A stretch of DNA of 27,689 nucleotides. Origin: a virus. Its lineage: Duplodnaviria > Caudoviricetes. The notes under the pieces are model-generated. The model was not told the origin of the DNA. It did no database searches and saw only the letters and a list, made by a program, of their open reading frames with translations. The stretch is taken from the IMG/VR virus record IMGVR_UViG_3300025018_000466, positions 1-27,689 of that record. One strand, 5' to 3'. Both the position numbers and the translations under genes were made by a program. Of this stretch, positions 19,010 to 23,476 are shown piece by piece (positions within the stretch are counted from its first letter, which is position 1; every line of letters begins with the position of its first letter).

Positions 19010-19444
19010 CTAGACGATCTCGCTTTCGTCCATGATGCGGATCGCGACGAACTCCACGTCCTGGAGGACGATGCCACGCGCGCCTATGTTCTGCGTGTAA
19101 CGCGACGGGCGCACGCGCTGGATCGTGGCGACGATCGTTCCGGTGACCGAGTCCTCGACCGTCGCCGTCATCTCGGGGTGTCGGAGGATGTCTTCGAGGC
19201 GGGGGAAGAGCACGACGCCGTCGCGGTTCTTGATCGGGTTGGTGATCACCCGCACGAACTGCGCGCTGAGCGTGACGCGGTACGCGGTCGCGACGTGCTC
19301 CGCGACTTCGAGCTGATCCAGCACCTCGACGGGGTCCTGCTGGATCTCCTCGGAGTAGCTTACGTTCGTCGCGTACATCACTCGTACACCGTCTATGGTG
19401 AATCGAGCACGCGCACCGCTCAGGACGAGCCCTCTACCGGCCAT
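19010..19444 (-). CDS. Tail tube protein (144 aa)
   Basis: Size, beta-rich pattern (SGARARFTIDG, VEVLDQLEVAEHV, QDVEFVA), GGAGG RBS and position downstream of the sheath. Confidence 0.85.
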   Translation of the reverse strand: MAGRGLVLSGARARFTIDGVRVMYATNVSYSEEIQQDPVEVLDQLEVAEHVATAYRVTLSAQFVRVITNPIKNRDGVVLFPRLEDILRHPEMTATVEDSVTGTIVATIQRVRPSRYTQNIGARGIVLQDVEFVAIRIMDESEIV

Positions 19445-19531
19445 GGGAGTTAAGCCCTCCGACGAACTTCATGTTCGCCAATGATCGTACACGGTTTCGG
19501 GCAGCTAACCAAAGACCGCATCAGTTGCCGT

Positions 19532-19560
19532 TTGACGCCATTGTTGGACCCGGCTATGTT
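19532..19560 (+). promoter_or_regulatory. Sigma70-type promoter TTGACG-N17-TATGTT driving RHH-tnpB
   Basis: -35 at 19532-19537, 17-nt spacer, -10 at 19555-19560; predicted start site falls on the in-frame GTG at 19568. Confidence 0.75.
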
Positions 19561-19567
19561 GATGACC

Positions 19568-19720
19568 GTGCCGGCTCCAAAGAAGCGACAGCCAGTCCAG
19601 GGCATCAAGATCCACCTCGACCCACCGCTCTTGGCGTGGCTTCGGTTGGAAGCAAAGCGCCTTGACGTATCGATCTCCGAGTTGCTCCGACGCCTCGTCC
19701 GCAAGGAAATGGGCATTTGA
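19568..19720 (+). CDS. Ribbon-helix-helix (CopG/Arc-like) DNA-binding protein (50 aa), probably leaderless
   Basis: Beta strand IKIHL, helix PPLLAWLRLEAKRL, turn, helix SISELLRRLV; its TGA overlaps the tnpB TTG start (TTGA). Confidence 0.8.
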   Translation: MPAPKKRQPVQGIKIHLDPPLLAWLRLEAKRLDVSISELLRRLVRKEMGI

Positions 19721-20922
19721 TCCTCGCTCATCGGATCCGGCTCGACCCGAACAACGTCCAGGCATCGTGGTTGGAGCGCTGCGCGGGGACAGCGCGCTTC
19801 ACGTTCAACTGGGGCTTGGCGCGCTGGCAGGAGCAACACGCGGCCGGCGAGAAACCATCCTGGCAGAAAATCAACGGCGAGTTGAACTCCGTCAAGTCTG
19901 TCGAGTTCCCCTGGATGACCGAACTGCCGTGGGCGATCACCAACAAAGCTCTCTCTGACCTCGGCGCGGCCTTCACCAACTTCTTCCACCGGGTGAAGTT
20001 CGGGCAGAAACCCGGCTACCCGCGCTTCAAGTCGAGGAAGCGGAGCACCCCTAGCTTCGCGATCGAGGGCCGTGCGCTTCACTTCGACGGCAAAAAGATC
20101 AAGATCCCCAAGCTCGGTTGGGTACGCACACGGGAAGCGCTCCGCTTTCCGGGCAAGGTGCTTTCCGCACGCTTCACGAAGCGCGCAGGATATTGGTACG
20201 TCTCTCTCCAGGTCGAGGTCGACGAATCCCGTTGGTCCTACCCCCATCGCTGCGAAACCCAAGCAGTGGTCGGTGTAGACCTCGGTATCGTCGATCTCGC
20301 CGTGCTCTCCACCGGAGAGCGGATCGAGGCGCCTCGTGCTCTGCGAGCACACGAAACCAAGCTGCGACGGCTTAACAAAGAGCTGTCGCGGCGCACACGA
20401 GGAGGCAAGAACTGGCACAAGACCAAGGCGCAGATCCAGAGGCTCCACGAGCGCATTGCCAACATTCGACGGGATGTGACGCACAAGCTCACCACGAGCT
20501 TGGTCAAGCGGTTTCGCTGGATTGGCATCGAGGATCTGAACGTTGTCGGCATGACGAAGAACAGGAGGCTCGCCAAGTCCGTGATGGACGCAGCGATGTC
20601 GGAGGTCAGCCGGCAACTCGCGTACAAGGCCCCTCTCGTAGGAAGCGCGGTCGTCGTTGCCGACCGCTGGTATCCGAGCAGCAAGACGTGCTCCGGGTGC
20701 GGCGTCGTCTATGCCGACCTCTCGCTCGGCGAGCGCCGTTGGACCTGCGACGCATGTGGTGCCGAGCACGACCGCGACAAGAATGCCGCGGAGAACCTGA
20801 GAGCTATGGCCGCCGCCCAGGCGGTTACAGCCTGCTGTCACGGGAGCGCTGGCGCCGATCTTCGGATCGACGTGAAACCCCCGCTTGGGCAGGAATCGAG
20901 CAACGTTGTTAGCTTCGGTTAG
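19717..20922 (+). CDS. tnpB: RNA-guided endonuclease TnpB (401 aa), catalytic residues intact
   Basis: N-terminal HTH (AHRIRLDPN...ARFTFNWGL), GYPRFKSRK, RuvC-I VGVDLG (D188), RuvC-II IEDL (E272), Zn finger CSGC/CDAC, RuvC-III HDRDKNAA (D354). Confidence 0.96.
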   Translation: MILAHRIRLDPNNVQASWLERCAGTARFTFNWGLARWQEQHAAGEKPSWQKINGELNSVKSVEFPWMTELPWAITNKALSDLGAAFTNFFHRVKFGQKPGYPRFKSRKRSTPSFAIEGRALHFDGKKIKIPKLGWVRTREALRFPGKVLSARFTKRAGYWYVSLQVEVDESRWSYPHRCETQAVVGVDLGIVDLAVLSTGERIEAPRALRAHETKLRRLNKELSRRTRGGKNWHKTKAQIQRLHERIANIRRDVTHKLTTSLVKRFRWIGIEDLNVVGMTKNRRLAKSVMDAAMSEVSRQLAYKAPLVGSAVVVADRWYPSSKTCSGCGVVYADLSLGERRWTCDACGAEHDRDKNAAENLRAMAAAQAVTACCHGSAGADLRIDVKPPLGQESSNVVSFG

Positions 20923-20960
20923 CATCGTTCAAGTCTCGAATGGGATCACGCCGCCTGTCG
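20805..20960 (+). ncRNA. Predicted TnpB omega-RNA (reRNA) scaffold plus 3' guide; boundaries approximate
   Basis: Overlaps the tnpB 3' end; CCTGC (20831-20835) pairs with GCAGG (20889-20893); two C(UUCG)G hairpins at 20856-20869 and 20902-20929. Confidence 0.7.
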
Positions 20961-23213
20961 AATCGCCACCAGGTGGACAGTGATCGGGATCCAGTTGATC
21001 GGGAGGGTCGGGGCGATCTCCACGCTCACCGGGAACACGTCGCCGATCTGCTCGACGCTGAGATTCCGCCACGCGACCGCCACGCCCTCGGGGCCCGTGA
21101 GCTGGTTGAGCACGTCGGCCGCGAGGCCCTTGATGGACGCGGCCGAGCCCGCGAGCCCTCGGTGTCCGACCCTCTGTTCGAGCGCGCGCCGGAACTCGAA
21201 CACCGCGGTGTTCGCGGACTCGTTCGCGGACATCTCGCAGAACACCTTGTTGTCGTCGGCCAGGTGCGTGGTGATGGAGCGCACCCAGCGCACGCCCACG
21301 CGGTCGACCATCTCCGAAAACATCAGCCCCGCGTCGATCATCTCCTCGTCGTCATCTTGGACGGTCCACGAGGAGTCGCGGCGGGTGTCCGACACGAAGG
21401 GGCGCTTGTGGGTGAGCGGCTCGCCGATCGGTGAGCCCGCCTGCATGCCCGCCGCAATCGCCGCGTAGATGTACGGCGGGAACCACTCCTCGGTGAGCGT
21501 GTCGGGGTTGGAGCGCTTGCACTCCTCCGAAATCGCCGAGATGTGCCGCGTGGCGAGCGTACGGATCTGCGACTTGATGTTGGTCTTGGTCTCACCCGCG
21601 CCGCCGGCCGTGCCGATCCCGACGTAGCCGTTCGCCTCCGAGCGCCCGCGCCCGGCCCGCCACACGAGATGGAGCGCGAGGAGCGCATGGATCGCCGGGT
21701 CCCGCGTGAGGGGGACGATCGTGTTCACGCGCCGCGCGCGCAACAGGTCGAACGCCTGGAGCCATTCGTCGGCCGTGACCGTGCCCTCGGTCCCGCCCGT
21801 GAGGAAGATGGCGCCCGATGTGTTGGCCGGCGCCGCCGTGGCGCTCGAGGCGACCTCCACGGACACGTAGGCGCTGCCAGCGTTCAGCGCGTCGACGAAC
21901 GCCTGCAAGTCGCCGAGGAAGTCGTAGGCCGCGCCCATGATGGTCTGCCCCGTGACGGCGTCCAGGTCGGCGGGGTCGTAGGTGGTCGGGTTGCTGACGC
22001 TCGCGGTGGCCGTGATGCCGTCGCGAGAGTTGAGGTAGTCGACGAGCTTCTGAACGGTGTTGTAGAGGCTCAGAGAGGCGCTGATCGCCGTCACCGACAC
22101 GGTGACCGTCCGCGCGCCAGCCACGTCGCCGAGCGCCAGCACGTCGAGCCCGCCGAACACCGTCGCGCCGACCACGGGAACGGACGCCCCGTTGGTCATG
22201 TCGAAGCGGTTGGCAATGGCCGCGCCCGTCGCCGAGCGCCCCCACACCGCCACGTCGACGGCCGCGTTCGTGTCGATGGACACGGTCAAGACGCTCGCCG
22301 CCGGCATGTTCGTGAGCAGCACGACGCCGCGCGTGAGCACACCCGCCGTGAGCGAGAACAAGGTCGTGGGGAACGTCGAGCGCACGGTGACCGTGCCGAG
22401 GGTCGCCGCGCTCTTCACGACGCCGAGCACCTTCGAGAAGCTCTGCGTACCAGCCACAACGGTCGTACCGTTCAGGGTGACGGTCTCGCTGACCGGCGTC
22501 GTGCCACTCAGCCCATAGACCGTTACGGTCTGCGTCGTGTCCCCGGCGTCACTCGACAGGTACTCCAACGTGCCCGGCGCCGCGATGTCCGCCGTCCGCT
22601 CGGCCACGAGGCCCGTCTCCGCCTTCGTCGCCGCGACCGACAGCAGCGACGCGGTCTTCGTCGCGAGCGCCGTCCCGTAGCCCTCGGTCCCGGGCGTGTA
22701 GAGCAAGTCGAGGATCGTGTCCCCGCCGACGTCGTCGAAGACCTCGGTCTCGGTCTCGAAGATCACGGTGATCTTCTTGCCCTGGACGGTGCCCGCCGCG
22801 ACCGTGACGTTGATCTGGTTCGTGAACAGGCCCCAGTCCCGCGCGGTGATGTCCACCGAGTCCGCTGCCGCTCCGTCGGGGAGCGTCAACGAGGCTTGCA
22901 CGGCCGGATTGACCTTGACGGCCACGATGCGCTGTGCGCCGCCGGGGACCGCGTCGTCGAGGCTGGGCTCGAAACAGAACTGGCCCGCGACCCGCAGATC
23001 CCCCGATCGATACGTGGCCATCATCTTCCCAGGCCGCGTGTAGTCCGAGTAGGTCGAGTCGACGCTGAGCGGCTTACCGCCCTCGGCCGTGCCGAGGAGC
23101 GCCACGATCCCGACGGCTGACTGACTGACCCCCGCCAGCTCGCTAGCGTCGATGATGCTCACTGCTTGGGGGACGTTGATCCGGCGCCCGCCAAAGAAAA
23201 TGCTGCTGGCCAT
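20946..23213 (-). CDS. Contractile tail sheath protein (755 aa)
   Basis: ATG at 23213 with GAGGGAG RBS; VALLGTAEGGKP, ARDWGLFTNQI, FLTGGTEG, GEPLTHK and SITT motifs of phage sheath proteins. Confidence 0.92.
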   Translation of the reverse strand: MASSIFFGGRRINVPQAVSIIDASELAGVSQSAVGIVALLGTAEGGKPLSVDSTYSDYTRPGKMMATYRSGDLRVAGQFCFEPSLDDAVPGGAQRIVAVKVNPAVQASLTLPDGAAADSVDITARDWGLFTNQINVTVAAGTVQGKKITVIFETETEVFDDVGGDTILDLLYTPGTEGYGTALATKTASLLSVAATKAETGLVAERTADIAAPGTLEYLSSDAGDTTQTVTVYGLSGTTPVSETVTLNGTTVVAGTQSFSKVLGVVKSAATLGTVTVRSTFPTTLFSLTAGVLTRGVVLLTNMPAASVLTVSIDTNAAVDVAVWGRSATGAAIANRFDMTNGASVPVVGATVFGGLDVLALGDVAGARTVTVSVTAISASLSLYNTVQKLVDYLNSRDGITATASVSNPTTYDPADLDAVTGQTIMGAAYDFLGDLQAFVDALNAGSAYVSVEVASSATAAPANTSGAIFLTGGTEGTVTADEWLQAFDLLRARRVNTIVPLTRDPAIHALLALHLVWRAGRGRSEANGYVGIGTAGGAGETKTNIKSQIRTLATRHISAISEECKRSNPDTLTEEWFPPYIYAAIAAGMQAGSPIGEPLTHKRPFVSDTRRDSSWTVQDDDEEMIDAGLMFSEMVDRVGVRWVRSITTHLADDNKVFCEMSANESANTAVFEFRRALEQRVGHRGLAGSAASIKGLAADVLNQLTGPEGVAVAWRNLSVEQIGDVFPVSVEIAPTLPINWIPITVHLVAIRQAA

Positions 23214-23215
23214 GG

Positions 23216-23476
23216 CTAACGCTCCCTCGTCTTGAAGAGCTGAAACTCCGCGTCCCATTCCTCGGCGGCGAGCTTGCGCGTGCGAGGCGCGAGGCACTCA
23301 CAGTGCAAGAAGGCCGCGGCGAGCGGCGACGCGTTGCCGCGGAAGTGCTGCACCGCCGTCAACTTGAGGCGCCGATCGGGGAGGGCCTGCGGGGGGACCT
23401 GCGGGGGGACCTGCGGGGGGACCTGCGGGGGGACCTGCGGGGGGACCTCGGGCATCGAATCCTCGGGGTCAGGCAT
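23216..23476 (-). CDS. Small pre-sheath protein (86 aa) with (VPPQ)5 repeat
   Basis: GAGGA RBS before ATG at 23476; ends 2 nt before the sheath ATG. Confidence 0.65.
   Translation of the reverse strand: MPDPEDSMPEVPPQVPPQVPPQVPPQVPPQALPDRRLKLTAVQHFRGNASPLAAAFLHCECLAPRTRKLAAEEWDAEFQLFKTRER
23386..23448. repeat. 12-bp perfect tandem repeat CCTGCGGGGGGA x5
   Basis: Five exact copies at 23386-23445 plus CCT. Confidence 0.97.

Follow-up and report, generated by a model that had tools for sequence, protein, structure and literature searches.

The locus considered here raises the question of how a foreign cassette can lie backwards between two neighboring virion genes of a phage. The window, which is the whole virus record IMGVR_UViG_3300025018_000466 (27,689 nucleotides, 27.7 kb, about 28% complete), carries a myophage virion operon on its minus strand; between the tail sheath gene (20946..23216, minus strand, phrog_279) and the tail tube gene (19010..19444, minus strand, phrog_985) lies a plus-strand unit, antisense to the operon, that encodes a ribbon-helix-helix (RHH) protein and the nuclease TnpB. 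The first-pass annotation had identified in this unit a promoter, an RHH protein of 50 residues, a coupled TnpB with D188, E272 and D354, and an omegaRNA-like end, placed antisense between normally adjacent genes; all of these features were confirmed, the sheath and tube genes being adjacent in 13 of 14 related loci. It overlooked the targeting of a start codon and a long open frame on the opposite strand, and these two properties carry the interpretation proposed here. The element (19445-20944, plus a shared AT at 20945-20946) is probably a transposase-less copy of IS607 lineage that sits backwards on the tube start codon, with its opposite strand a likely translational bridge and the insertion predicted to be non-polar.

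On the operon strand the element is open over 491 codons (19450..20925, minus strand). The start of this bridge frame, 19 nt inside the right end, follows the sheath stop by 20 nt; it is ATG in 8 of 10 copies as well as in the window, and the stop codon of the frame (19450..19452, minus strand) lies 5 nt before the tube ATG. As the frame is in register with tnpB, any TTA, CTA or TCA codon in tnpB would close it, and the tnpB gene of the window has none. These codons were seen twice against 167 expected in 25 RHH-type tnpB genes of the family, and not at all against 77 expected in five tnpB genes of an RHH-less sister group, whereas 34 outgroup genes contained 412 against 504 expected; none of 54 distinct outgroup genes was free of them. 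Third positions are near saturation, and shared ancestry therefore fails to explain this purge. The other two antisense registers over tnpB have normal numbers of stops. Across the left end and the RHH gene of 21 copies the bridge register has 7 stops, against 58 and 70 in the other registers, and short internally deleted derivatives mostly keep the frame open too. In 20 of 25 left ends precisely 5 nt separate the stop, ten times TAA and ten times TGA, from the host ATG. Selection keeps this antisense frame open. Two other copies show variations on the same arrangement: a 71-nt deletion near the tnpB start in L007 (4961-5023) frameshifts both tnpB and the bridge, a second frame still ending 5 nt before the host ATG, and in L004, a member of the sister group, the end of the antisense frame overlaps the junction ATG.

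The boundaries of the element are similarly regular. The tube ATG reads CAT on the plus strand (19442-19444), which is the target site and predicted transposon-associated motif (TAM) of the element, and CAT occurs at 21 of 24 left junctions in the family, the remainder being one CAC, one AAT and one AGT. The left end (19445..19567, plus strand) has a constant length in the family, with a nearly gap-free alignment in which conservation begins at CAT. Right ends consist of GGG followed by AT in 12 of 13 complete copies; in L082, which has CAC at its left junction, the ending is AC. The flanks diverge directly after position 20946, which is also where loose ends of sibling elements fall in contigs from four DNA runs. 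Both junctions share a 2-bp core with no longer duplication, AT/AT in 11 complete CAT copies and in L001 (AAT) and AC/AC in L082, the left copy being part of the host ATG, and this shared dinucleotide is expected to be the recombination core. Sister-group elements keep AT as their left core while the right core varies; CboTnpA is described as behaving likewise with non-matching cores in the available text of bioRxiv 10.1101/2023.11.20.567912. A boundary with a GG core, for which TGGG is present at both window junctions, was rejected because only the AT-core model restores normal sites of Shine-Dalgarno sequence (SD), spacer and ATG; moreover, family members differ in the three bases that follow CAT.

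The junctions also coincide with translation starts of host genes. In 14 of 18 cases a frame of at least 50 codons begins at the junction ATG, whereas the fraction among 1472 flank ATGs is 0.41 (p 0.0016), and a native SD is present in the right flank in 9 of 17, against 0.22 (p 0.005). Profiles that match an N-terminus begin near the junction for a DNA polymerase (L060), a tail tube (L061), a KH protein (L069) and a GDSL protein (L075), and Met1 of the tube is invariant in relatives. The element itself gives an outward SD, GGAGGG (19455..19460, minus strand), to the tube gene. Pairing of the left end with the anti-SD amounts to -10 kcal/mol in the window and to -5 kcal/mol or lower in 21 of 24 left ends, and its purine run lies 11-16 nt before the host ATG, with positions 11-15 being 94-100% purine in 17 ends. 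An mRNA fold hiding the tube SD was no better than in shuffles (z -0.46). The junction counts leave out L067 (no left end), L073, L080 (left flank too short) and L083 (a non-member), together with the duplicates L070, L071, L074, L084, L086-L088 and L055-L056; L061 was shifted by hand by one base and L060 by three (quick tree and terminal-stop count), and the later addition of L110 brought the terminal-stop count to 25 left ends. Two sites are unusual in other respects. In L001 (2701-4734, minus strand) a viral record carries a gene for elongation factor G (EF-G) without its first residues, to which the left end of the element contributes a purine run and a TTG in frame. Since the right flank does not correspond to the absent EF-G start, the site looks rearranged. 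In L068 (1593-3383, minus strand) the displaced gene is terminase-like with a LAGLIDADG domain, probably an intein, which would place two selfish elements on one gene.

The window element is one copy of a mobile, mostly phage-borne family. A profile search with the RHH protein returned 29 metagenome loci, 3 viral loci and 2 loci among 185,579 species genomes, both of the latter on contigs of 2-4 kb, and tnpB lies directly downstream of the RHH gene in nearly all family loci. Flanking genes, where nameable, are mostly of phage type (primase, DNA polymerase, terminase, ribonucleotide reductase, tube), and many are unmatched. Complete copies measure 1431-1510 nt, and the family occupies 24 distinct sites. 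Three copies (L064, L065 and L080) are 99.3-99.6% identical with different flanks; such near-identical copies at unrelated sites, combined with a cognate tnpA in trans, had been named in the first-pass annotation as marks of an ordinary non-autonomous insertion sequence (IS), and the scattered copies were found but the tnpA was not. The RHH-less sister group nests inside the family in the quick tree and is multi-copy, with about ten ends in one 154-kb virus record, in which no Y1 or serine transposase was found. These sisters and their internally deleted derivatives of 278-296 nt are represented by L002-L006, L012, L017-L040 and L092-L103, and, in contrast to the RHH type, they have a left end that repeats the right end in inverted form. 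Longer, fused RHH forms were searched for and none were found, and the last right-end scan yielded one known locus and three chance matches.

The lineage of TnpB (19717..20922, plus strand, 401 residues) is most likely IS607, since the nearest outside TnpBs (43-48%) are often located beside a serine (IS607) tnpA and their right ends share, by eye, the same omegaRNA layout; the TnpB tree is a quick tree with an open fork, and the NCBIfam subfamily models stay under their cut-offs (NF038280, 297 against 350; NF038281, IS200, 317 against 425). The protein has helix-turn-helix (HTH), RuvC and zinc-finger domains, with two CxxC motifs in the zinc finger, and scores 285 bits with the guided_TnpB profile (cut-off 100); its three acidic residues are invariant in all 12 family members compared. 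Its TTG start overlaps the RHH stop, an arrangement of translational coupling. The RHH (Arc-like) gene (19568..19720, plus strand, PF01402, 33 relatives) starts at a GTG aligned with the ATG of the family and scores 27.9 bits with Pfam RHH_1 (cut-off 20.5). Upstream of it lies a sigma-70-type promoter, TTGACG-17-TATGTT (19532..19560, plus strand; 1 found against 0.3 expected), of which the -35 TTGAC is kept in 23 of 24 family left ends. The RHH start, which has no SD, lies 7 nt after the -10 in the window and, in most copies, at a constant distance of 36 nt from the -35, and the element mRNA is therefore probably leaderless, as judged from the sequence. TTG triplets recur around the -35 (19532-19570) and may be RHH sites. 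By analogy with published homologues the RHH protein is likely to repress the promoter of its own element. A subterminal palindrome of the GAAC-N5-GTTC type (19461..19479, no strand) occurs in 20 of 24 left ends and is a candidate recombinase or RHH site; in IS200/IS605 elements, guide tetranucleotides at hairpins near the ends pair with the cleavage sites.

At the right end (20810..20946, plus strand) a structured omegaRNA scaffold is predicted, its last bases being the shared AT (20945-20946), followed by a variable guide. Compensatory changes were observed at 18 of 38 predicted pairs in 12 sequences, and none of 500 shuffles reached that number. Rfam contained no significant family for this end, with no RAGATH-18 match up to E 5. 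According to the available text on the IS607 CboIStron, the core belongs to both TAM and scaffold (bioRxiv 10.1101/2023.11.20.567912), and by this analogy the guide (20947..20966, plus strand) most likely begins at 20947 and is antisense to the sheath stop and last codons. The placement of the guide at the sheath 3' end in the first-pass annotation is supported, although the guide start appears to lie three bases later than claimed. It had also noted the lack of a Y1 or serine transposase, and neither PF01797 nor PF00239 was found in the record, itself only 28% complete. No Y1 tnpA was found in cis or in the records searched, which are incomplete, nor a serine recombinase tnpA in cis, where the RHH gene takes its position.

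Several other explanations of this unit need to be weighed. In the model of the first-pass annotation, an RNA-guided homing nuclease or weapon, domesticated and bound to this locus, would attack relatives at their conserved junction of sheath and tube. The nuclease is intact, and in at least one distant myophage a family left end lies on a tube ATG (L061, 3384; tube 32% identical) and a family right end follows a sheath stop (L014, 648; sheath 34%), yet these are not the nearest kin of the window element and may be halves of one locus; no relatives of the L061 tube were found among viral contigs. The survey of RHH-tnpB orthologues suggested in that annotation shows that they do not keep this locus, as the 24 sites lie mostly in unrelated genes. 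Furthermore, of the 14 related junctions, which include near-duplicates, 13 are empty and have spacers of 13-25 nt, and at the tube start the guide, which spans the variable stop/start junction, is mismatched at 10-13 of 16 bases in all 14 relatives; no CAT-flanked near match to it was found elsewhere in 12 loci. An IS607 TnpB is reported to lose activity with single mismatches in positions 1-13 (available text of PMC11061315). Only near-identical siblings could be cut, which corresponds to the maintenance and gene-drive role published for TnpB, and a locus-bound weapon is unlikely. In the closest relative the remaining junction is occupied by an HNH endonuclease gene, and this together with the L061 and L014 insertions suggests that the sheath/tube junction is a tolerant or favored site rather than the seat of a locus-bound system. 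What survives of the proposal is the homing-like cutting of empty alleles, a process already established on chromosomes and plasmids that would also reach sibling phages in co-infection; the locus-specific aim at relatives is not supported. The HNH gene itself (L015, 4534-4998, plus strand; phrog_3377, E 1.7e-27; tube 93% identical to that of the window) is in sense orientation, overlaps the sheath stop and ends just before the tube start.

The antisense frame could instead be expressed from the host operon as a real protein with a job of its own, such as a factor acting on the host or the mobilizing enzyme that is missing. Its start and stop are conserved, its four-fold sites are slightly more conserved than in pairs from the outgroup (excess 0.14 against 0.07), peptide support exists for a reverse frame on a cyanophage tnpB (available text of bioRxiv 10.64898/2026.02.14.705889), and such a protein would account for the tnpA not being found. 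However, the similarity of the antisense peptides follows mostly from TnpB (identity 0.41, against 0.35 after third-position shuffling), and their invariant residues are mostly F, G, P, L and V, mirroring TnpB codons. No Pfam family was matched, no fold was predicted from a shallow alignment of only 9 sequences (pLDDT, a predicted local confidence score, of 27), and the short derivatives keep the frame with different content. We therefore regard an independent protein as improbable; the peptide is barely constrained while the frame is open, which points to selection on openness and on the end point of translation. An ordinary non-autonomous IS, in which start-codon insertions are mere survivors and the open frame a by-product of codon bias, is a still poorer candidate, even though elements with only RHH and tnpB are published, high G+C favors long antisense frames and survival bias is to be expected in gene-dense phage genomes. 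Family copies at 51-54% G+C contain 0 or 1 stops against 11-16 expected, whereas 19 G+C-matched outgroup genes contain 1-17 each. Among 918 Leu/Ser codons of 16 family genes 2 are closing codons, while 388 of 2657 codons in the other four-fold boxes have A in third position, and the own genes of the phage use closing codons in 61 of 878 Leu/Ser codons. The openness, moreover, extends through the RHH gene and the non-coding left end, and the codon-bias account is already largely refuted. The most improbable of these readings is a toxin-antitoxin-like pair, in which RHH would bind and block TnpB, as proposed for an archaeal clade with the same gene order and translational coupling (available text of PMC10691335). 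That clade is archaeal and non-mobile with a rearranged RuvC-III site, whereas here D354 is invariant, the element is mobile, and the multi-copy sister group that nests in the family has no RHH at all.

Translational coupling and Rho-dependent polarity are established, and they are the basis for what seems the simplest reading, in which the element passes for a gene of the operon and translation of the displaced host gene continues. A serine TnpA acting in trans would recombine at the AT core. Ribosomes leaving the sheath gene would re-initiate at the bridge start near the right end, traverse the element, which would keep polarity from affecting the late mRNA, and begin again at the tube gene after the stop 5 nt upstream. 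RHH would hold down the element promoter, as in published homologues, and TnpB carrying a right-flank guide would cut the empty site beside a CAT-containing TAM; the copy would thereby be restored after excision and driven into empty, near-identical co-infecting siblings. In an element-free reconstruction the sheath stop and tube ATG overlap by one base, and one-base overlaps also occur at 2 of 7 other junctions of the same operon. No joint skipping the element was found in the four DNA runs; contigs drop rare variants, and this absence says little about empty alleles.

Some observations weigh against this bridge reading. The reconstructed one-base overlap is present in no sampled relative, 13 of which have the spacers mentioned above. 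Four of the 18 junction ATGs open short frames only, and L001 lies inside the EF-G gene. The left-end SD is inherited, so the 21 of 24 ends that pair well are not independent (median shuffle p 0.08), and targeting is indistinguishable from the survival of harmless insertions. Of 14 complete copies only 9 have the entire bridge; L063 has one internal stop, early ends occur in L007, L076, L077 and L110, and in the window the bridge start, 20 nt away from the sheath stop, has a weak SD only. Finally, a transposase was not found in 88 family loci, nor in five records by Pfam, and a protein search of ten records returned one weak match of HTH length only.

Compared with known systems, the element is closest to IS607, as described in available text on CboIStron (bioRxiv 10.1101/2023.11.20.567912) and ISFba1 (PMC11061315), in its probable TnpB lineage, its right-end omegaRNA layout and its 2-bp core at both junctions without target duplication, fixed on the left and variable on the right. 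It differs in having an AT core and a CAT target in place of the GG core in the G-rich TGGG/AGGAG. Unlike IS607, it also has RHH in place of the serine tnpA, an open antisense frame and no RAGATH-18 match. IS900, an element of the IS110 family described by Doran et al. in 1997, reportedly inserts between a ribosome-binding site and a start codon in one orientation, and its long frame on the host strand, hed, is said to accompany a ribosome-binding site restored for the downstream gene. IS900 belongs to an unrelated family with its own transposase, whereas here the frame overlaps TnpB, RHH and the omegaRNA, and selection for its openness was measured. Arc-containing IS605 elements (Moon, Zedaveinyte, Wiegand and Sternberg, bioRxiv 10.64898/2026.09.24.754181) likewise have a small, stand-alone RHH beside tnpB, including elements with arc and tnpB only. 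Arc represses the element promoter there according to the available text of Moon et al. 2026, and the regulatory role that the first-pass annotation gave to RHH agrees with this. In those elements arc is often divergent from tnpB and tied to a Y1 TnpA, and the main text describes neither start-codon targeting nor an antisense frame, whereas the genes here are co-oriented, coupled and probably of IS607 lineage. The rearranged RuvC-III and immobility of the archaeal RHH/MazE-TnpB module are not found here.

With TnpB gene drive or non-restorative homing (PMC11870625 and PMC13565253, in their available text), the element would share a flank-derived guide that cuts IS-free copies of a multi-copy replicon; that process is described there as demonstrated for plasmids and IS605 rather than phage, and co-infecting phages are named as possible targets in the homing review (PMC13565253). 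Free-standing phage HNH homing endonucleases (Seg/Mob, same review) are also selfish nucleases between two conserved genes, as L015 exemplifies at this very junction, but they are described as protein-guided, in sense orientation and without mobile ends, and the single fixed locus with a target conserved in relatives that marks them is not found for the RHH-TnpB element. The cyanophage A-1(L)/Anabaena tnpB (bioRxiv 10.64898/2026.02.14.705889) has a long, transcribed antisense frame with a detected N-terminal peptide; that frame, of 347 residues in a single element, was interpreted as a novel protein, and the available text describes no selection test or insertion-site model. Elements with RHH and tnpB, and gene drive by TnpB, are therefore already published, and what is new here is an RHH-TnpB element, probably of IS607 lineage, whose target has changed and whose antisense bridge frame is under selection; no report of TnpB elements that join start-codon targeting to such a frame was found in a literature search that mostly fell outside subscription journals.

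On a broader view, there is about an even chance that these elements are phage-specialist RNA-guided gene drives, which target start codons, have recoded tnpB, RHH, promoter and omegaRNA around a stop-free frame, pass ribosomes on to the displaced gene and convert siblings at co-infection. If so, they would represent a third route, beside self-splicing (IStrons) and inteins, to a phenotypically silent RNA-guided selfish element, and would show how a TnpB element may enter tightly coupled essential phage operons and leave them unharmed, with the purge of three codons and a fixed stop as its signature. The same reading predicts a short CAT-type TAM in an IS607 lineage whose characterized members read G-rich motifs, and suggests the involvement of a serine recombinase whose core specificity is new. 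It would also offer a natural system for RNA-guided gene drive between phages, and for genome engineering a non-polar cassette of 1.5 kb with insertion at start codons could be a useful design. Outside the family, a more distant TnpB (L130, 44%) has a related RHH directly upstream and five antisense stop codons.

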